Below are positions 1 to 27,626 of a DNA stretch of 34,361 nt, in pieces; position 1 is the first letter of the stretch; each line of letters starts with the position of its first letter. Made by a program: the position numbers and the translations under genes. Below the pieces are notes generated by a model that did not search any database, was not told the DNA's origin, and saw nothing but the letters and a program-made list of their open reading frames with translations. The stretch is from Atractiella rhizophila (lineage: Eukaryota): positions 1-34,361 of the forward strand of contig MU271661.1 in the NCBI GenBank assembly GCA_021432655.1. Reading direction: 5' to 3'.

Positions 1-249
1 GGTCAAGAGCTTAGAATACGAGAACATGTCAAAGTACTGGACTTTGGATGAAGTTAGGAATAAGATTTTGAGATTCTGATGTCAGCGCACAGATACCTAG
101 CAGACTTCAAGCAGCTTCGCGTCCCGTTCGTTATCTCATTGCACAGAGAGGATTGAGATATTTAGTACTCGGTGACTTTTAAGGCTCATGAGAACCATAG
201 CAATCGTTTATCCTTGAATGTGTTATTTTGTCAATTTCGATCTTCTGCA

Positions 250-900
250 TCGAAAAACTTTCAATTTCTGCAGCACAACGATAACAGTAAGCAACATTAC
301 GAACAACCAAGAGTGAAGTATACCTTTCATGGAAAGTGCCATGCCCATCTCCTCCCTGAGATCTTACTCCCGACTGCCAAAATGCCAGGTCGAAGAAATG
401 CCGTTTGTTCGCCGCTGGAATCTCTGCTTCATCATCTAAATAATAAATAATCTCTAGTCCACCCGACTACTATAACTTCTGAATCTCGATGGCGTTCAAT
501 ACCACGCCCGTCCCAAACGGGCCGTAATGTAGAGAATCCAACAGCTTACAGAGCGACAGCGTGAATTCATCCGGTTCTCATGGAAGCTTCTACAGCAAGC
601 AAAGTGTTGAACTTTTGTGGAATGCGCAAAAGGGGAATTGCGTCAAGACCTCTTCAAGATCTTTCTGCTCTTGTCAAGTTTTGTAGCTCGAGAAGGGTAG
701 ACGAAAAGCATAACGATGTGCAAACTGGTAGATATCCTACCAAGAAATGGTTAGAAGGGTTCCGAAGATCCAGCCTCAAATCCTTGATCGAGTTCGAGTT
801 TGACAGCATAACACACGCAGGCATATGATGAAGGAATCGGCAAGTCGTTGTCCCAATATCGACTGCACAATGAAACAAATCATGAAGAATCTTGATTATG
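250..900 (-). pseudogene. Decayed C-terminal part of an F-box/LRR-like gene, paralog of the gene in the mirrored block
   Basis: Minus-strand fragments in shifting frames (DND-ADSFII, SIKDLRLDLRNPSNHFL, QKDLEEVLT, LLRIPQK, LNAIEIQ, RHFFDLA, EEMGMALSMK then donor GTATAC at 323) match, in order, ENDFAHSFFM, SLRHLRLEQTNRSTYHL, QEDFQEVLT, PLRIPPN, LKHVEIR, REFLDLS, EKMGITLSIT then donor GTATGC of the mirrored gene. Several frameshifts; boundaries approximate. Confidence 0.65.
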
Positions 901-1256
901 CCTACAGCGTTCGGGACCTCTCAACCCCACCATCAGCGCTACGCCCTTCAGGAGAGTCGTCTCCATCTCAATTACCTACTGGCTGGGTAAGTCCCCAGGT
1001 CGTGCTGGTCTTCAGCTGAGGGTCTTGACCACTTGGGCATCTCCAACATCTCAGCACAGAGCTCCTCGACGAGCATTCCCGCAAACAGAATTTCCTCTTG
1101 CGTCAGTGGTTTAAAAGTGCTGCACTCAGTACTGAGCGATGAGACGTACGGCGAGTTTGGCTACGCTGGCGATGGAAAGTTGATCGCTTCCAGCTGCTGT
1201 GAGCTCATTCGGTCCCTTTCTCTGCGCTTGGGACACTGCGGAGGTTAATCTTTTTC

Positions 1257-1380
1257 NNNNNNNNNNNNNNNNNNNNNNNNNNNNNNNNNNNNNNNNNNNN
1301 NNNNNNNNNNNNNNNNNNNNNNNNNNNNNNNNNNNNNNNNNNNNNNNNNNNNNNNNNNNNNNNNNNNNNNNNNNNNNNNN
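1257..1380. other. Scaffold gap (124 N)
   Basis: Run of N bases. Confidence 1.
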
Positions 1381-3735
1381 CGACGCAGCATCTCCCAAGG
1401 ATCGACTTAAACAGCACTTATTCCACTCTCCCTCTACTGGTCGACAGGTGAAGACAAGTCCAATCCCAGTCCCAGATAGTAGCACAAAGAAACGTCGAAC
1501 GTCGTTGCACCACTTCGACGCATCTTACGTCATTAAAGTTAACCAATCTATAGTAAGCTCGTTCGTATGTCATGATGAGTTTATGGAAGGTAGCATTGCT
1601 ACTGACGTCACGCGATAACGCAAAACACAGGCAATATTAGAGAAGACGGTCATCTATTTTGCACCATTACTGTAGCGGGGTTGCTCCCCTTGCCTTAGTT
1701 TCGTGAGTTTGTTCGTAAGTAAAGTTTCGGTTACGGTCAGCAACAATCCTTCTACGAGCCGAAAACATCTTAACAGTCAGTATGTTCGCTTCTCACTGTT
1801 CGAATCGTATGGACAATATCTATTGCATTAGGGGTAGAAGAGTTCCTCAAGGAGGTTGGATCAGGAAGGAAGAAGGAAGCGACTGTCCAGGTCCTTGAGC
1901 GCAGAAAAAGATCGCTTTGGGAGTCAACCTAATCAAAGCCCGGGAGCTTAAAGCTGCACAAAGTTTCCGTGTAGGAAAAGTTTAGCTGGTAGCGTATCTC
2001 TTAAGGTCATCCAACGTCTCACCGGCTCATTTAGAACGAGCGAGAAACAGCGGCTACATCTCGTATGTCTCGACAACTTCCAAGCCGCCTTACGCGTCTC
2101 CTTCCTTGCTGTTCACTTCATGGAAATTGACTTCCGTATAGCAATTTTGGAGGACCTTCAGAAGGACGTAGACCCACGAGTACCTGCCTTTCTACAACTT
2201 GGATTTCCGAACGTTCCACCGTCTACATGGTGCATTTTTCACGTTTTTCCTTAGCGCATCTACTATCCAGCTTGCTAAGCAGACAAGGTCAGAGTTTACA
2301 GACTCGCTGGTTCAACTCCAACTGCCACTGTTGCGGAGATTCTCGTACTTTTTCCTCACGCGTTTTAGTAAGAGGTCCAGCTCTCTTCATTCCAACCTTT
2401 TGAAACCGTAGGTAGCAGATAGAAGTAATTCAAAGTCGTTGGTACAGAGGTGGGAGGGCGCCAGTCATCGAAGTACAAATAACACTTTTCTTGCCCTCGC
2501 GCAGCGGTTAAAGTTTACAAACTCGGGTACCGACTTGACTTATCGCACCTTCTTTTGTGACGGCTTTAAGCTAACTTTCCTCAGCATCTAATCCTATTCA
2601 GAAAAGTTAGGTGAACGCAATGAGTTTTGCCAGCTATCTCCGAAGGTCAGTTAACACACTCCTCGGAACTGGGTTTTATAAGGTTTATAAGACTCGCTTA
2701 GATTGAACCCCTCCGTTATGCGCTCCTAGCGCTTTATTTGTCCCAAGTTCAGAAGTTTTGGATTCGCTTGGAACTAGCAATTACGAGCCTAACGTGTCGC
2801 TTCAACTCAGCCTTCCAACCTTTTAGCTCCATACATTTGACGACCTACGAGACCACCCCCTGTCGCCATCACCTATCCTTCCTGGAAAAGAGGGTAAGTT
2901 GTACTCCCCTAACCGTCTGTTTAGAATGCTATTCCATTTCTGCTGCTCTGTTTGTTTCTGTACTCACGTCTAGACGTACGCTGAGCGCAGGGTCAGCGAG
3001 CTCCTGGTAGAGTTAGTCGAGCAAGCCTTCTTCAAGTTTTCCACTGTTTTATTGACCCAACTAACGCGGCCTTGAGCGACCACGTGAGTTCTCAAGAAGC
3101 CAAAGTCAGAGGACGGACCGTAACTTTTGTGAGGACATCTTGTCGACATCTAGAAAGCATGTTAAGCACTGCCGAAAGCGAAGTCTTACGGCTCTGTCAA
3201 CTAGTCATCTGGAGGTGTAAACCTGTTTGCCCCGCATTGAGTGAGAAGCGGGTATTTTACTTTAAGTTTAAATACAAAGCTTTGTCGGAAGGCCTACCGA
3301 AGTTCGTAGAGGGACTCGAGTCACGGAAGAACTAGGTATCTGGCTTTTGTATCCTACACTATAAAGTTGGTTTTCGAAAACTCTAGCTCTTCGCGGACAA
3401 CATTTTGTGAAACCAAACTACAACCTCGGTGGTATAGCCGCTTGACACATACGTCTGTAAGGTACTCAAAGGGACGTCATCTACGTTCCTATTATATGGA
3501 CGCTCTCGATGTCGACCTCATTCAGCAGGACCTCTTGTTATCACCATACGGCTAGATTCGAAAAACTACTAATTACTTGCAGGGAAACTAAAATGTAAAC
3601 TGAGTGTAAGGTTGTCTTCCTCGCCGTCTAAGTTCAACAACTGCTTAAGTTGACCTAAGTTGTTACGACTCGCGCCCTGCGATTATTGGTGTCTAAAACG
3701 ACGTCGTCGAACACCCCTTGTTAGGAACGTCGATA
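1381..3735. other. Mirror-image block (reversed but not complemented, equivalently complemented but not reversed)
   Basis: TpA exceeds ApT (hand count roughly 50 vs 30 over 2461-3300) and there are no credible ORFs in the six normal frames. The plain reversed string gives long ORFs, an F-box motif and GT-AG introns. Right boundary approximate (3700-3742). Confidence 0.93.
1723..3219. CDS. F-box/LRR-like protein readable only in the reversed, non-complemented string (read 3219 toward 1723)
   Basis: Reversed reading gives SPFELLPNELIEMVLERLGRESHADLHSCLCLSRRLYLI (F-box; LPNEL at 3030-3016), then intron GTAAGA..AAAG (2928-2885). An open frame runs 2884-1979 (301 codons) with LRR-like units PKLDSLRIFG, SGLKRLILIY, HGLKHLKLA, SNLTSLDLEN, WSLRHLRLEQ, QLKVLHLSF. 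One frame change near 2045 leads to VPLKHVEIRG..RLEELLEKMGITLSIT, then intron GTATGC..ACTGAC..AAAG (1811-1761) and last exon AEHLPNNDWHWL*. The start is uncertain; further exon-like segments lie at 3245-3730. Confidence 0.85.
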
Positions 3736-3742
3736 TCGCATC

Positions 3743-5008
3743 ATGGCCGTTGGAGTCCAGCCTGTCCTTAAACCTTCGCGTCCTGATTCTCCAACACCAA
3801 CGGAAGAGAGGTAAGAAGCAATCAGATCATCATTCTGGGCTGACATGACATGCATACAGTCTCCTACACGATGCGGCCTCTGAGCCTGGCGAGTCTGTCT
3901 TTTCAGTCGAGCTGCCACACAAGCCCGCCTACTCTGCCCTGTCTCGCGCTCTGCAAACTAACGATCGAGATCTTACCCCTGATTCGACTCCAAAGAAGAA
4001 GAAGACGGGCAGTTTGAGCAAGCTCTTTGGCGAACATGAGGATCCGGATGAGGCGATTGAGAGGAAGAGGAGGGTGGTCATTCGAAGAGATATCGATCCT
4101 GTGCCCATCCCTCCTCCAGATCTTAAGACAGAAGTCGAAGAAGTGATGGAGATTGGAACCCCTACTGCTGTGGTGGAGAGGATTGGGAGAGCTAGGAGCA
4201 GGACGTTCGAGGCGGTTCGTCTGGATGTTGGGAGGCAGAGGATGGAAGAGGCACTGGCGATCAGGAAAGCATGTAGGGAAGGTGGTTCGACGAGAGACGG
4301 TGGTGCAACATCGGTATGTATCCGATTACTTATTGCCCCACTCTCTTCCTTCTTCGAGACCGATTTCGATTGTGACAGAATCAGCGTGTAAACGTCCTCA
4401 TCATCCATGATGACACACTCACTTCTTCCTTCATCCGCTTCTGCAGACGGAACCCCGTTGCATGCCCCCTCCTCGCTTGCACATCCATCCCTGGGAACCC
4501 AACAAAGTTGACGCACTTAGGGATCGTGGAACCATCCTTTGATATCCCAGATCAAGACTTGGACATTACCACGGGTACGTCCTTTACCATCCTTCTTTCT
4601 TTCTCTTGCGTGGTCAACTGAAATTCCCCAGATTGTCCTTCGTATCATGTTTACGGCGCGACACCAGACGAATTTCCTCCGTACGCATCGCCCGCCATGT
4701 CAATATCAGACGACATCCTGCCTCCCGCCACACTTTCATGTGATCTCGACCCTCACATCATGCAACGAGAGCACCGCAACCTCGTACTCCCCAATCCAGG
4801 CGGTCCAGCTGGAGTACGACGCTCCCCCTCTGCTTCTCCCCTCTTTCAAGGAGTCAGTGGATGGACACCTCCGATCTCGCTCTGTTCGTCCCCGGCTCCG
4901 CTTTCTCATTTAAACTCCATCCTCCCTTCTTCCACGCTTCCTCGCTCGACCAGAGACGGTACCACATCCATTCTGCCGATTCTTCCGGCGTCCGCGAAAA
5001 TGCTTTAA
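3743..5008 (+). CDS. Divergent, truncated DUF1445 (UPF0317 hydro-lyase / D-glutamate cyclase-like) N-terminal-domain protein
   Basis: ATG 3743; introns 3811-3859, 4314-4378, 4575-4631 splice in frame. The product contains IRKACREG..NQRVNVLII..SFIRFCRRNPVACPLLA..PGNP..DLDITTDCPSYHVYG, resembling the family pattern QANLVIL..DF..FC.RNP.PCPLL..DIRTD.P.Y.V. The 3' end is uncertain. Confidence 0.7.
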
Positions 5009-5856
5009 ACAACGACGCTACCGTGGACAACGGAAAAGGAAGTCCGTTGCTGATTGGCGTCGCTACAAAACCGGGAAACATATGGAGGGCCAAAATACGC
5101 GGATAGCGACGAGACAATTCCTGTGTTGGCGCTCTCAGCTTCCCATGGGATGGATGATGAAGGCGAGAAGCTCACGTTGACCATAATATCGTTATACGTG
5201 ATGGCAGTTCTCGCAGCATTCCCCAGAGAATAGTGTTTTGCGATACCCAGATCGTCCTCGATTACCTGTCCTCCAGAGCCTGGGTGAAGGATAGAAATGA
5301 CCGACGCCTTCTCTTCTCTCTTCCCTGCTTCCTCCACTAGATCAATCAGGTCGTACGCGAACCGAAAACGGGAGAAATAATGAAGCTGAAGCTTATAATC
5401 GAGACCGTCTTTCGTAGGCGTGAAACCTTTCAAGGACAGAAGACCAGGGGATAAAACTATAAAGTTGATCTTCTCCAATTTCTCTCTCAGCTCCTTCGTC
5501 ACCTTCCTTACTTGCTCCAAATCGCCGACGTCACATTTGATGAACTCGGCTTTTCCCTCTTCATGCTTTGGCCAACTTTGCAGGATCTGCTTCGCCTTCT
5601 CTTCGTTCCGCCCAAGAAGGATGATATGCGCTCTCCCTCCTGTCTGACGCGCCAGTTTGGTGGCCATAGCTTCTCCCACGCCACTCGTACCGCCTAGGAA
5701 GAGCGAAACAGGAGGAGTGGGAGGTTGGAAGAAGGAGTTCGATTCCACAACGCGCTGAAAAGACATAGATCTCGGAGTAAAGTAGATATATGCAACAGCG
5801 GAGAAAACGAGAGGGACGAGCAAGTAAGTGGTGAATCGACTTCGTTTGAAGGGCAT
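4854..5856 (-). CDS. Atypical short-chain dehydrogenase/reductase (NAD(P)-binding Rossmann fold)
   Basis: LFLGGTSGVGEA glycine motif, ILLGRN, FIKCDV, INFIVLSPG, TKDGLD..LHYFSRFRF. Intron 5175-5121 (GTGAGC..ACAG) joins to ELSRRYP..HMFPGFVATP. No canonical YxxxK. Alternative start at MSFQRV. Confidence 0.9.
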
Positions 5857-7157
5857 TTAGCGTCCGTCTAGGAAGAAGGCGTGCCTTTGTATCCTCAGAA
5901 GCCGTAGGCCAGGTCATCCCGGCAAATTACCCCAGTTCTCATGCTCCTCCATCCTGAAAGTGGAGCTTGCAGAGGGTGGAGCTCGGGACCGTGACCGCTG
6001 TCTCCCTACTTTTACGTGCATGTGTATGCTTCCTTCCATGACGCAACTAGATTTTAAACATTGGCATGTTAATGGCCGTTCCTTCACGCTCCAACAGGAG
6101 CAGCCAAAGAACGTAAAGAAACCACAATGTCTCGACGACGTCTGCCTCAGCAGTATACGACTGTAAGTTCATGCGCATTCCTCTCCTATCTAAAGGCAAA
6201 AGTTTTCGCGTAGCGATTCTAGCAACCAGTAATCAATCGCCGGAAGTGAAAGAGATTACAAACTTGGATTATAGCCAGAGTAAGACACAACGCGACTTAG
6301 GGAAAATGGGGTGACATCTCACTTCCCGCTCAACACCACTTACTTATAAACCATCCTCCTCCATCTGTCAACGTCAAGGATTGAACCAAACTCACAGCCC
6401 ATTGTAAAGTTTACGGAACCGAAGTTCAGAATTTGGCGTCGGACAATTAACGTAGTAGGAGTCGTATTGTTAGAATGTGACAATGGACCATATAGGGAAT
6501 CCTTAACGCCTGGTTTACTTAGAACAAAATTAGAAGCTTTTGGGACAGGTTTGCTCATCCCGCAACGTGAATCTGCACATCCCATAACCACCAGTATAAC
6601 ATGAACCTTTCCTGCTGACATCCTATCTGTCCAGCACTTTCCCTGCTTTCCCTGATGACATATATCTCCTTGCGTGAAATGTGGCTGGGAAGTTTTGGTG
6701 GCTCGGTGACTGGTCATAATGGAGTGAGATACAGTTTTTTTCTCTTTTCTTTGGCATCCTTGTCTGGACCTAGGGGAAGTCTCCGGGAGGGACAAACGTT
6801 GGACATTGATCTTAGGAAACACCGCAGTGGCTCTCTGAAGTGGGCTAGGGATCTACGGCCGCCTGTGCCATCTCTTGTTGACCAATCAGCGAGGAGCCCC
6901 AGGAGGAGCCCCTACAGCACACATTGTACACCTGAATATCTTTCTCCTTGCTTCAAATGCTTCCACCTTCCTTTATTAGAGTGTTCCACAATATGCTCTC
7001 CGTCTCTGGCTGAGCTATGATTGAACGTCGAACATGATTGCAAGGGTCATTACAGCACAATTGTACAGGACCATGTCGATGAGGAGGAACACAGGGAACA
7101 GCACATTAACCGAACAGACAAAACGAAATGATACACACACCCAAGACATATCACATC

Positions 7158-8220
7158 TCAAAGTATCCACCTACTCTTCCCTGCCTCCCAATCCATGACC
7201 GTCTCGCCGTCTCCAACCGCGACCTCCCTCCTGCCTCCGTCGCTCAACACCCAAACGGCCGTCCTCCAATCCGGCCAAACGATCGGTTCTCCCCTCTCCT
7301 CCGCCTCTCCCTCCGCTTCCAAAGAAGTCCCAAAATCCCCCTCACCTCTCCTCACCCTCTCCTCATCGATTCCAAACCTTTCCAGCGCCTCCCACCCGCT
7401 CCCAAATGGCTCATCGTCCGCGTCCATATGGGTGGTGAAGGAAAAGGATACGGCGAGGACCATCGTCATCCCGTTGCTCTCCTTCGTTCCTTGCGACATG
7501 CCGCTGAAGTCGAACGGACGCGATGGGATCAGTGGGAGAGTGGAACGGTAGAGGAGGTGCGGGGAGGAGGTGGCAGGTGTGGGGAGGAAGAGGAAGCCTC
7601 GTGAGGTTGCGGTCCATGGGGCAAGGTGGACCACTTGTGCTGTCTCTTGGGTCCGGGGAACAAGGGTATTTTCTCTTCTGGGAGGGTCGGGAGGATCCCG
7701 AGGATGGATGGGTTTCGTGGTATCCAACAGAGGAGCAACAGGTTGAGGAGGACTATGGAACGGTTGGCTTCTCATCTCGCTAGCTATTGCAATTGATGGT
7801 GGAGGGATGGAGATATTGGATGGCAAAAAAGAATGATAATTTGAATGACAAAGTGAATCAGCTGGTTTGGGATTATAGCGTTAGGGTGACGGAGGGCAGG
7901 AAATGATATATTATTTTAACCGCCCATGGATGAACTCCCCAATGGATCGTAAGCTGATCGGACGAGGAGGGCTTTGATATTTGCAGGCAACCGAAGAGGA
8001 CGTCATCTTCCAAAGCGGGATGTCCAGTTCCTTGAGCTGTCCCCCACGATATCCAAGACTTCTCCAGAGCCTCCCAAAGGGACATCCCATCCTGCTTCTT
8101 CTCGTCCCTGTTTGATGGGTCGGGACTCTCTACGATCAGAGTCCTGAAGTGAGAAAGACGAGAGGAGGGCCGCCGCACGAAGGAAAGAACCCGATTGATC
8201 TTGGCGACAGGAAGTCTTAA
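7158..8220 (-). CDS. Hypothetical protein
   Basis: ORFs 8178-7873 and 7826-7158 can be joined by an intron (GTTAAA..CTAAC..CCAG), giving HWGVHPWA|LIHFVIQIIILFLPSNISIP. No family recognised; 5' end not resolved. Confidence 0.55.
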
Positions 8221-10275
8221 GTTAAAGTCGAGGAGGGAAGCACCGTATCTTGTTGACTAGTGGAGGGAACAGGTACATCGATCGAATCAAACTGCAAGCC
8301 TCGGAATTGACGAACGCGATATTCGTCACGTTTTGGTCGCCTTGTGTGCGGCGAGGATTTCGAAGATCTGCAGCAGCAATTCGGAAGGTATAGACTGGAT
8401 GGTCGCCATTACTATACTCGTAGTGCTTTCGTGGTAGCTGGAGTGGGATTCACTCTGAGATTCAAAGTGTCATTAGTTCCACATGTTGAAAGAAGAAACG
8501 TAAGGAAAATATGTACCAGGCAGGTATAAGCAGGTGCCAACGATCAATCTGCAACAATCCTTCTCTTCTCTGGCAATAGGAGGAACTGATTTGACTTCGT
8601 CGCTTTGTTACATGTCCTGACCTGACTCAAGCGGCACCAATTCTATTTATCTTGTTACCTATCAGTCCAGCCCAGGAAGCCGTCAATTGGAGAAAGGATA
8701 TCATCCTTTTCACAGAAGGCTGTGTCTTCCTCGTCTGAGTTTTCGCCTTGAAATGAAAATACACTGCAGACGTCGACCTATCCGAAAGCGTCGCTGTGGC
8801 ATGGAACAGTGGAGCGTCTGCAGCTTGAACTCCATCAGTGCAGGGGCAGGCTTCCTGACCTTACCCGCCCCATAATCCTATTCCTTCAACACCACTGACA
8901 AGGTAAAGGAATTGCCGATCCCCAAGTTACAATGAAGCAGTTTTAGGCCATTCGGGCTCAATCATGAATACGCGCAGGACACCACCGACAGCGCGAAAGA
9001 CTCGGAAGGTTCTCTTTTCCCAATTCCATGGGTTATTCCATTTCGAGTCCCATCGTCTATCTTCTGCGGTCTCCCCATCCTCCGAGTGTTCCCTGAGCAC
9101 CTCGTGCCTCCACACGACAGGTTTGAACATGTTCCTCCGTGTCAGGAGGAAGCAATCATCTTGTTTATGAAGGTTTATGAAGATGGAGGACAACGACTTG
9201 GCGATATCTTATTGTGATGCGATCCTGGAAGCGCTACTACTCGAGTAGCAGCAGCCATAAATATTTCTGAAGCAGAATATAATCCTTATCTGTGCCCGGA
9301 GCTATAGTGTGCATTTGCATTATTACGGTCGATGAATATAATAGTCAGGCGCAGTCTAGAAGTGGCCGCAGCTGTGGTAACTGAATAAAGTGGCAGTTAT
9401 CATAATGGCTGGAGAATGGAGGCGAGACGGAACAGCCCAGCCTGTCAGAGAGGACGAGATTGATCGATCATCATTCCTCGCGAATGATTACCATGCTCAA
9501 GGCCTCAAGCATGGAGCTTGCTTCGGTCTGCTGCGTCTGAGCGCTGAGCCTCTGCGGTTTCAGAGCTCTGAAAGTACATCAGCTGCGTTCCATCTCCAAC
9601 GTGGATGGAGGATTCCTCTTCTAGGATGAGATGGAGGATCAAGAATAACAGCATGTGTGGTAACGTGAAAACAAGCTGGAACAAGATCGATCATCGATCA
9701 CCATCCCCTCAAAGTGCCTCAACGTTGAAAGCGAAAGCAGTCCTAGTGAAAGGGAGCTGATTGGACGAACGTATATAAACACGATTGTGACGGTTGGATC
9801 AAGATTCGCGCTTAATTATGGAGCTTACGAGGGTAGGTACATACGTTAAGTCACGATCGGCCTTTGCTTTGCTTTGCAATCCTGGCGCCATGACAGCAGC
9901 TCAATTCTCAAACGACCATCCTTCTCTTCTCTCCACTCTATCTCTATCTCTACAATGTCAGCCTTACCATCTACATGCTTAAATATCAGACAACTGCAAC
10001 TGAAAGAGATATGGTGAGATGGCAGTCCAGAAGGAAGGAGATGGGCGAAGGTTAAGGTTGTCGGGGTGCAAGAGGGGCGAGTCGTTCCACGAAGTGACCT
10101 CGCAATCGAATCTTTTCAAGTTTTCCATCGGGTGAGCCTCTCCATTTCCCTGGGATTATCGCACACTCGCCACCTGCACCCATCCAGGCACGGGCAGGCA
10201 GCACACACCCAGCACGTCACTCGTCACTCGGCCACGCAAGACACTCGGTAGGCTCACCCCGGCATATCCTTCGGC

Positions 10276-24050: not shown

Positions 24051-25322
24051 ATGGTGTTTGGATTGTTTGGAATGGGAATGGACGTGAAGAAGGGTGGGAT
24101 ATCGTTAGGGACAAAAAGAATGAGTGTCATCGATGTTTCCTGCAGGCAGGAGAAATCGAAGAATAATGAAGGTACGCTTTTTTCCTCCTACCTTTATTCT
24201 GCCTGGATGTGGGGTTGCAGCACCGCCAAAAATGCACTCTCCTCTAGCAGTACCACCGCGACAACACCTTCTCTGCCCTCTACATCAATATCGACGCGTC
24301 AAGCACCGACACGCGCCATATTCCCGAACGAGATCATTTGCTCGATTGTAAACGAGCTGTATGAGATCTCATACCCAGCACGCGCATTTGCCGACTACGG
24401 CCTCGTCTCGCGGTCGTTCTATGGCTGCGTCCAGCCTCTGCTCTTCACACACGCGTCTTTCGTCGCTCGAAACGCGTCGGATTCACCCTGCACTCGACTC
24501 GCACTCTTCGAACATCTCCTAGCGCAGGATCCGTGGAAAGCTTCACTCGTACGCTCGTTGGAGATCAAGTTCCCAACCCCTCGAACTGTCTTCAGTTTCC
24601 CCTCTTATCTCACCAGCCTGAAATACCTCGCGCTTTCACGTATCGACTTCACCCAACTCTCTTCCGCCACTCCACTCCCCTCTTCCCTCCATACCCTCGT
24701 CATCGACTCCGGCACCGGTGCTCTCTCCAATTTAATTTCCTTCCTCCGAAACAGCAAAGGAAAGCTCAAGGTCTTGAAGATGCGAACGGACTGGTCGTGC
24801 ACCTGGGATGCCCTGGAAATCCACGATTTCGTACTCTTCTTCGCCTGCGGCCTTCAGTCGTTGGAAATGGCTTTCAAGTCGGCAGCGGTAGACGTTGGAC
24901 CTTCCCATGCAGTCGAGGAGCCTTGTAAAGGCCACGAGTGCCTAGAGACCCATACCTACGTTGCCGACTCCACCTTCCTCCATCTTTTGCAGCGAAGGGA
25001 AATTGCGAACTCGGAGAAGTTGAAGAGACTCGTTCTTCATGGTACAGCTAGTGCAGATATCCTCCAGGTCATCCCTTCGTCCATCCACGAGTTGGTGGTT
25101 TGCGTCAACTCGACTAAGGAACCATTGGGTCTTGGTCCTGTGCGCGAACTTTTGCAGGATGAGATGATGAAGAAGCCGAAATCGATTGTGTTTGTGGATA
25201 CGGGGAGGTCGACTTTTGATGAACGCGATGCGGCAGCGTGGGAACTGTGGGGTGATGTGAAGGACACTGCTGAGGAGATCAAGATCGATGTGACATTCGA
25301 GTTGTTGCAGTGCGTCCAATAG
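24051..25322 (+). CDS. F-box-like / LRR-like protein
   Basis: 423-codon ORF with IFPNEIICSIVNELY..AFADYGLVSRSFYGCVQPLLF (F-box-like) and LRR-like units SLKYLALSRI, SLHTLVID, KLKVLKM, KLKRLVLH. The true start may be a later ATG (e.g. 24208). Confidence 0.8.
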   Translation: MVFGLFGMGMDVKKGGISLGTKRMSVIDVSCRQEKSKNNEGTLFSSYLYSAWMWGCSTAKNALSSSSTTATTPSLPSTSISTRQAPTRAIFPNEIICSIVNELYEISYPARAFADYGLVSRSFYGCVQPLLFTHASFVARNASDSPCTRLALFEHLLAQDPWKASLVRSLEIKFPTPRTVFSFPSYLTSLKYLALSRIDFTQLSSATPLPSSLHTLVIDSGTGALSNLISFLRNSKGKLKVLKMRTDWSCTWDALEIHDFVLFFACGLQSLEMAFKSAAVDVGPSHAVEEPCKGHECLETHTYVADSTFLHLLQRREIANSEKLKRLVLHGTASADILQVIPSSIHELVVCVNSTKEPLGLGPVRELLQDEMMKKPKSIVFVDTGRSTFDERDAAAWELWGDVKDTAEEIKIDVTFELLQCVQ

Positions 25323-27626
25323 TGTGATCGCGAAAAGTGATTGCTGATGTTGGTTTCTAGCGCTGGGGAATTTCTTGGAGATGCAACGGAGCGAGTCCTC
25401 AGTTTGATAGAATAGACGTTTTCGTCCTTTCTTGTTCAGCGTAGTTCAGCTCGCTTTGTAAGTGCTTTTACAATTAGTCTTCTTGGTTAGAAGTTGTTGT
25501 TTTCTTTGTAGTAATGTTTTGGTTCCAATATAGTAGTGCAATAAATTGAATGATTTCAGCACCAACGTTCTACAATATTAGGTCTCCTGAAGCTCTCCCA
25601 GATCAGCCGATACATGCACAGCTCCTAACGATCAAGCACAGTTACCTTCAAAATTGTCGTAAAACTGTGACTTCGTTGCTTCTTTGATTCCGCGAATGCG
25701 TCAAGTCTCTGACCCAAACGCAACGCTAGAACAAATTCTGCCGCAGGAGACATGGTTGCGCTCCGTGGAACTATTAAGGAACGTTCTTTTTTCAAGGAAT
25801 AATTCCCCTTGAGGAAGCAGAACTTGATAAAACAGATGGATGGCAGATATGGCACAAACACGAGCAGTTCCGCCTTTCCATGGGGGAGCCAGATGCCACA
25901 GCGACCGCCGACAAAACCCTGAATCACGATGTATGCTGCTAGTACGATGGCATGGACGCTGAAATTTACCATGAGAGTGCATTGTTAACGATCTCTTTTA
26001 TATCCAAGATAGGAACTGACGCGCCGTCATAAGGTTTACAGAAAGATGAACAGTCTCGCTACAACAGTTTTGATCAACTGCGTAGACCTGGATACCATGC
26101 TGGTTCAAGCGCTGGAAGTCATGAGAACTTGAGCTCCAGCATTTGGACAGTTAAGATGGGACACCATACATTTTCTAAGTCCCGCCAATACTTTCGACTT
26201 GTTCTCTAGTCGATTCTTGGTCGCCTCAGGAATCTGTTTACTCCCAGAAGTGACCTGTACGAGGAACCCAAACAGTCAGCGAGAGCGTCGACACGGGGGC
26301 GAGTTTCTAATGGGACGAATGAAAGTGGCATGAATGAACGAACCTTGAGTTGTCCATCGATCTCATCCTTCACAGACATTTGAAGCAAGTCCGTCCAAAT
26401 GGTGACCCAATCGTCGTTTTGTTCCTTCTCCGAGGTCGGACGCACCAGCGAATCGTTGTCCAAGGCATCGTGAAAGTCCTCAGGCAGTCGATCGCATACA
26501 GAATGGATCACTTCAGACAAACAATCTGGTCCGTCGGAGGTGACAACAATTCTCCCAATCGAGTTTAACAGCGCCGTTGATGTCGATGCCCCATTCTCGG
26601 GAGTAGATTCTGATCCTTCACTCCCTAATTCTCCTGTGTGCTGTCCCAAGGGGAATGACGTTAGTAGTCTAGACGTATCAGGTGCCGCATTGTTTATCTG
26701 TTCATACAGCTCCTGAACACCCATTGGAGTCTTTACTTCGGAGTGCCTTGTTCGGACAAGATCTTCTAAATCCATCCACCCACGTTCCTCGTCCTCCTCA
26801 TGCTCTTTATCCCATTCCTCGTTCAGCCTTTTGCTTTGTTTCATGTTGACCTGCCTCATCATCTCCCTCATACCGCCGCCGTTTTCACCAACAACTACTT
26901 TAAAACTTGGCATCCCCAAGCTACTCAAATTTTTGAAAAATCGGAAGATCCCAAATATTCCTCCGGTCTCTTCTTCGTTCACTTTCGATGCTGATGGGGA
27001 GTTACGTCCCCATATATATGTGGCAGGGCTTCGTGGTTCAGGATTAATGACTCGAGGGAGGGCTCTCTGCTTGGGGAGGAACTTGAAAGCGAACTGGCTC
27101 GGGGTTGCACCCCCATCAGCTTCGCCCTGCGAATCCTTGTCCAACCTATTCATCTTTTCAGCAATCGTTCTGTACCTGAATGCAGACGGAAGGGCGAGTC
27201 GTTTAATAAGCGTGTGATCTACTCCTGCTTCGTCGAGCGATAGTGGTCGATCGGCTTTGAGAAGGATCGTCACTCGTTCAGACTCTTTGTCCTTCCGCGC
27301 GAATTCGGCGAGGTAGACAGGCTGGTAGACGGGGTACGCGAGCAGGATTGACTCGCTTCCTTCTTTCGATAACGCTCCTCCGGTAGATTCTATCAGCTTT
27401 GAAATCATGTTGGTCGGCACGATGGAGAATGGGAGGATTTCGGGTGGTGTGCTGGAAATGCTAGTAGGCGTGGAGGTGTAAGAAGAGAATGGGAGACATC
27501 TGTCCTCGGGGATGGGCCGGGTGTCCAAGATGGGACAATCGCTTAATATCGGTGTGGTGAATGCTGGGAGGGTGATTGACATGGAAGAGACTGAAGACAA
27601 GTCGTAACGGTTAAAGACTGCGAAGA
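25273..27626. repeat. Tandem duplication unit 1 (~2.35 kb)
   Basis: Near-identical to 27627-29989; begins in the last codons of the F-box ORF and ends at ..GACTGCGAAGA. Confidence 0.97.
26074..27590 (-). pseudogene. 5'-truncated duplicate (or second allele) of the 3' exons of the hypothetical gene at 31026-28434
   Basis: Large exon intact and almost identical to that in unit 2. It keeps the branch point and acceptor (27591) but lacks promoter and 5' exons. Confidence 0.75.

Follow-up and report, generated by a model that had tools for sequence, protein, structure and literature searches.

Described reversals and the present locus

Misoriented contigs and inversion mis-assemblies at scaffold gaps are known technical counterparts of the block described here, since in both a contig-end error leaves genuine sequence misoriented, and misoriented contigs next to gaps are common. 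These contigs are reverse complements, however, and can still be read by six-frame translation and by mapping, whereas the present block is reversed without being complemented, so that neither of its strands is readable and nothing maps to it. The same transformation is used in reversed, non-complemented decoy genomes, which serve to estimate false-discovery rates for HMM searches, according to a preprint (10.64898/2026.04.14.718546). Base composition is kept and biological signal destroyed in decoys and block alike, but decoys are made deliberately and kept apart, while the block sits in a scaffold as if it were real. The only biological proposal known to us is that of Seligmann, who in 2012, in a work cited in PMC5591391, reportedly put forward a speculative 3'-to-5' non-complementary polymerisation ('invertase'); the swinger or invertase RNAs are said to be short mitochondrial RNAs and are unproven. 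They resemble the block in matching a template backwards without complement, and differ from it in that independent DNA contigs show the ordinary orientation here. A RIP signature is shared to the extent that the block passes both index thresholds, but the block has neither GC loss nor, within the window, a repeat partner, and ratios that RIP is not expected to touch are inverted in it too. As to content, fungal F-box proteins with degenerate leucine-rich repeats carry an N-terminal LPxE-type motif followed by Leu-rich LxxLxL repeats, as does the protein read from the reversed block, which nevertheless gave no significant match to home-made proxy profiles.

The window, that is, the whole stretch of 34,361 nucleotides analysed, consists of eukaryotic DNA that is dense in genes, has short introns (GT..AG) and appears to be fungal; Pfam searches of its long ORFs recovered a sugar transporter, a short-chain dehydrogenase and a prolyl oligopeptidase. 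The block at 1381-3721 is in all likelihood genuine genomic DNA of an intron-bearing, fungus-like eukaryote, recorded back to front and uncomplemented, and is a data-handling artefact, not new biology. The true coordinate of a base in the block equals 5102 minus its given coordinate, and the true + strand reads from 3721 down to 1381, in place. The features of the locus are collected in Table 1.

Table 1. Coordinates of the gap, the reversed block, its predicted gene and the downstream gene, as positions in the window.
Feature	Position	Strand or reading	Remarks
Assembly gap	1257..1380		124 N, the only N run in the window; the next base opens the mirror block
Mirror block	1381..3721		2341 bases, very probably real DNA in plain reverse order; from XY/YX statistics, frames and junction contigs
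First correctly written bases	3722..3742	+	X1 and X2 contigs align rightwards from 3722
Downstream gene	3743..4312	+	Normally written; ATG at 3743; RNA-like contigs splice out 3809-3857 and 4313-4377
Exon 1 (predicted)	3219 down to 2929	mirror reading	97 codons; ATG 3219-3217; F-box-like motif 3030 down to 2992
Candidate intron 1	2928-2885	mirror reading	44 nt, GTAAGA..AG, phase 0; links exon 1 to the long frame
Exon 2 (predicted)	2884 down to 1982	mirror reading	301 codons inside a 305-codon run; stop 1981-1979
Second open frame	2124 down to 1727	mirror reading	133 codons, other phase; overlaps the last part of exon 2 and is closed by a stop
Candidate intron in second frame	1811-1761	mirror reading	51 nt, GTATGC..CTGAC..AG, in frame

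Composition and reading frames of the block

An earlier note on this DNA had reported an inverted TpA/ApT bias, and the bias was recovered here: the ratio was 1.49 in the block, 0.62 in the right flank and 0.65 in the left flank, with a range of 0.43-0.82 over 13 equally long control pieces. Two further ratios, (CpA+TpG)/(ApC+GpT) (0.80; controls, 1.12-1.39) and (GpA+TpC)/(ApG+CpT) (0.90; controls, 1.01-1.24), also fell outside the range of the 13 controls, and the reciprocals of all three fell inside it. The fourth ratio, CpG/GpC, was 1.12, at the upper end of the controls (0.73-1.13). After strand symmetrisation, the observed/expected value of TA was 0.88 in the block (right flank, 0.59; left flank, 0.61) and that of AT was 0.59 (right flank, 0.95; left flank, 0.93), and the values for AG/GA, AC/CA and CG/GC were also swapped pairwise in the block relative to the flanks.

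A 4-mer statistic, in which every 4-mer is set against its plain reverse as a log ratio, was trained on the sequence to the right of 3722 and scored in 300-nt bins. The block was negative in 7/7 bins (-3.7 to -34.6; total, -134.1 nats). Normal DNA scored +19.4 per 300 nt (sd 11.6) in a two-fold cross-validation, with 96 of the 101 bins positive and five below zero, and the left flank, outside the training sequence, was positive in all four of its bins (+14.8 to +32.6). As a strand-symmetric k-mer statistic is unaltered by reverse complementation, an ordinary inversion is excluded by this score. Misoriented contigs are frequent beside gaps, which would favor a natural or mis-assembled inversion, i.e. 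a reverse complement; such an event would nevertheless keep the six-frame ORFs and the symmetrised k-mers, whereas both strands of the block as given are devoid of long ORFs, the strand-symmetric log ratio is negative, and the loose end of the junction contigs described below is a plain reverse and not a reverse complement. An inversion is, accordingly, extremely improbable.

Read as given, the block had at most 116 codons between stops in any of its six frames, whereas the plain reverse contained a run of 305 codons (2896 down to 1982), as well as others of 161 and 133 codons. The claim of a long stop-free run on backward reading only was therefore upheld, the 301 codons first reported being the exon part of the 305-codon run. 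None of 2000 shuffles of the block reached 305 codons (maximum, 261). The longest runs of the control pieces as given spanned 157-308 codons (n = 13), and by this measure the flipped block is unremarkable. The length of an ORF is weak evidence when taken by itself, however, because reversal of one of the 13 normal control pieces likewise opened a long run, 286 codons in length, at about 7000-8000, where the sequence is skewed and of low complexity. The GC skew there is -0.36 and then +0.42, and many overlapping frames, with a high content of Pro, Ser, Gly and Arg, are open on both strands, as in a low-complexity region that is either coding or a spacer.

Codon triplets favored the forward over the backward reading by +0.19 to +0.39 per codon in the mirror frames, as compared with +0.14 to +0.29 in nine reference ORFs (leave-one-out). 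A codon-usage score against an off-frame background was tried as coding evidence and discarded, because it was positive for every stop-free run, probable non-coding ones included.

The composition of the block mimics a RIP signal, as had been proposed, since both default thresholds of RIPCAL are passed (TpA/ApT >=0.89 and (CpA+TpG)/(ApC+GpT) <=1.03, as given in PMC2621366). Both indices are XY/YX ratios, and normal DNA from anywhere in this genome would therefore pass them once reversed. If the block were instead RIP-mutated or degenerate non-coding DNA, its backward ORF and its motif would have arisen by chance; the two index values, and the 286-codon reversed run seen in 1/13 controls, are compatible with this reading. 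Against it, GC was not lowered (0.461, vs 0.463 in the left flank), so that AT enrichment was absent, and BLAST searches of the window found no second copy of the block, as given or reversed, and no repeat partner in any orientation. Moreover, (GpA+TpC)/(ApG+CpT), a ratio not expected to change under RIP, is inverted as well, and the junction contigs carry the reversed string as real sequence, leaving mutation or degeneration as a highly improbable origin of the block.

The junction in public contigs

Four public runs (X1-X4) matched parts of 1381-6090, and their contigs were aligned to positions 1-7000 of the window. A contig of 1257 letters from X1 aligned to 3722-4883 (11 of 1162 letters different), and one of 1192 letters from X2 aligned to 3722-4818 (12 of 1097 letters different); each extended a further 95 letters to the left of 3722 that were unmatched to the window as written. 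The 30 junction-side letters of these 95 were identical to the plain reverse of window positions 1410-1381 (30/30), indicating that the base touching 3722 in the real DNA is the one written at 1381, and that the block flips in place. The reversal at the junction is thus verified directly at one end of the block over 30 letters, and the rest of the block rests on statistics. X1 and X2 share one sample and count as a single independent source. At a difference of about 1%, this sample represents a strain or haplotype other than that of the window, and may come from a different individual from the one assembled.

The block had previously been drawn as 1381-3735. Its mirror character and its left edge were retained, whereas its right edge was moved 14 bases to the left, to 3721|3722, where the contig alignments start; the cumulative k-mer score turns at about 3729, a change point near this edge. 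We regard the reversal, its limits and the true junction as shown.

The contigs also bear on the reading that the organism contains true mirror DNA, a strand copied in the same chemical polarity without complementing. Positive support for it is nil, the speculative proposals of 3'-to-5' non-complementary polymerisation being all that could be cited in its favor, and we know of no polymerase or recombinase that makes a non-complemented reversal. The public contigs, with the ordinary orientation at the junction, contradict it for the X1/X2 sample; as the block moreover adjoins a technical gap, true mirror DNA is vanishingly improbable in the assembled strain as well.

Depth was 0 in all four runs for the nine bins (9/9) wholly within the block (1405-3510), while X1 and X2 covered 21/30 bins in the flanks. 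This zero depth is consistent with an artefact but was not counted as evidence, since contigs of the flipped string could not have aligned to the reversed one. The shares of sampled words found for 1381-6090, a query of which the block makes up about half, were 0.35, 0.34, 0.29 and 0.08 in the four runs; these values also agree with an artefact and were likewise not counted. The locus in its true orientation was sought in metagenomes by means of the neighboring genes, and 0 relatives were found among 475 and 0 among 154 pattern matches.

X3 and X4 stopped short of the junction and carried spliced joints (GT..AG and CT..AC), for which reason they look like RNA assemblies; in the genes on either side they confirmed four introns, 49-65 nt long. 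An RNA-like contig from X4 also skipped 57 letters at 4571-4629, with non-canonical ends (CG..CC) unlike those of the other four joints, which may represent a shifted cut or a between-strain indel. Two depth classes, alternative letters and small indels were observed in the X1 and X2 contigs at 1-1256 and 4900-6900, among them six letters inserted after 1202, together with contig ends left loose at 1147, 1224, 4892 and 6843, which suggests two haplotypes or strains in that sample.

The predicted gene in the mirror reading

Once flipped, the block holds a predicted + strand gene, arranged in tandem with the one that starts at 3743. The intron strings and the F-box-like motif were located where the earlier note had placed them, and the long frame was recovered. 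The join to the terminal exon was not confirmed, the frame closed by the stop at 1981-1979 and the frame of the 1811-1761 intron being in different phases. As many as 84 GT/GC..AG combinations keep a frame open between exon 2 and the downstream frame, and none of them could be singled out as the join. Candidate 3' structures include a GC-AG intron at 2038-1975 and a GT-AG intron at 2067-1944, or the gene may just end at the stop at 1981-1979.

The two mirror introns (44 and 51 nt; donors GTAAGA and GTATGC; a CTGAC branch-like motif) resemble the four RNA-supported introns of the flanks (49-65 nt), and the GTAAGA donor hexamer is also present in the RNA-supported intron at 3809-3857. When the exon 2 translation was used as a tblastn query, no paralogue of the mirror protein was found in the window. 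As had been stated, six-frame annotation of the block as given misses the gene.

The 'clear F-box' of the earlier description was reduced by our searches to a match by eye. The F-box core motif, L-P-x-E followed by spaced hydrophobic residues, was picked after the sequence had been seen; in a strict form it gave a single hit, the one in exon 1, in the 137,436 residues of 12 frames, where 0.005 were expected. Viral contigs were scanned with a degenerate form of the motif, which yielded 82 stretches, 73 of them open in frame; 16 of the 73 were picked by eye and put to Pfam, and 13 of the 16 scored above the curated F-box cut-off. Home-made profiles were used in a 13-seed version and in a widened version comprising 202 stretches from 150 library proteins. 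The mirror segment scored -0.9 bits with the 13-seed profile (rank 720 of 1650) and 4.7 bits with the widened one (E 2.6, rank 8), the spliced model scoring 3.6 bits (E 5.7), and changing --ere left the result the same. In a phmmer search with the mirror protein, the best match among the 150 proteins had an E of 0.033 and was aligned in register with the F-box stretch; this did not exceed the controls, of which 18 of 225 queries reach E <= 0.05. On the sequence at hand, the membership of the hidden gene in the F-box family is not established.

Leucine accounts for 15.7% of exon 2, and nine LRR-like LxxLx[LIFVM] units, a motif selected post hoc, were counted at residues 61, 93, 121, 165, 194, 253, 258, 269 and 272, vs 2.4 (sd 1.46) in shuffles, 6 of 20,000 of which reached nine.

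Other segments were retrieved in the course of these searches. On the minus strand, the normally written open segment 8329-8408 begins with a Met, then has an IPSELL..IF..L-type motif, and matched the first half of the home-made F-box profile at 12.4 bits (E 0.01), above the score of the mirror segment; a genuine F-box gene probably has its first exon here and extends to the left (minus ORFs 7873-8256 and 7158-7880). Also on the minus strand, 26 residues at 24959-25036 scored 13.0 bits (E 0.006) against the latter half of this profile, either by chance or because they belong to an exon of some gene that overlaps the ORF at 24942-25445. About 60 phage contigs from the viral motif scan have in common a conserved stretch of protein, of the FPDEIFY.IFEIEDN.ER type, that is no F-box; the one of these contigs that was scanned gave a weak DUF3829-like hit only.

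Origin and consequences of the reversal

The earlier note had attributed the block to sequence handling on the side of the gap, and this explanation is supported by the adjacency of the N run, by the contigs joined to 3722 and by the normal look of the block once flipped, in which state it resembles other pieces of the genome. On this explanation the real chromosome order is the left contig, the gap, the block from 3721 down to 1381, and then 3722 onwards; the letters stand in the order obtained by an outward walk from the left end of the right-hand contig. As to the responsible step, program or person, we infer that gap filling, contig extension or a finishing read could have been the source. 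A minus-strand outward extension or finishing read may have been complemented without being reversed; alternatively, bases may have been added one by one in the outward direction and the resulting string prepended unreversed. Either slip would produce the string observed.

Alternatively, the database entry may be correct and the reversal of later date than the public record, for example a control planted on purpose, a decoy or a slip in the preparation of the window. Genomes reversed without complementing are a standard choice of decoy when false discoveries are estimated, as described in the preprint (10.64898/2026.04.14.718546), and N runs could also be masking. The block opens exactly at the end of the N run, however, as an operation on a contig end would leave it and as a random decoy rarely would, and a later introduction appears unlikely.

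Returning to an artefact of the assembly itself, it is conceivable, though doubtful, that the block is one case of a systematic and apparently undescribed gap-closing or assembly fault that writes gap-side extensions backwards; phrase searches of the literature returned no report of reversed, non-complemented blocks in assemblies. If this were true, other scaffolds of this assembly, as well as public genomes from the same pipeline, would hold many mirror blocks, with hidden genes and false RIP calls. The effect of a systematic fault would reach beyond this locus. Recognition of the artefact is useful for quality control. The log ratio of k-mers to their plain reverse, trained on the same genome, is a very cheap means of detecting mirror blocks and could be applied to whole assemblies.

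With regard to data quality, standard index scans would call the block RIP-affected, and a + strand gene, probably an expressed one, is invisible to annotation and read-mapping tools. For the biology of the organism, which has ordinary DNA here, the finding does not matter.
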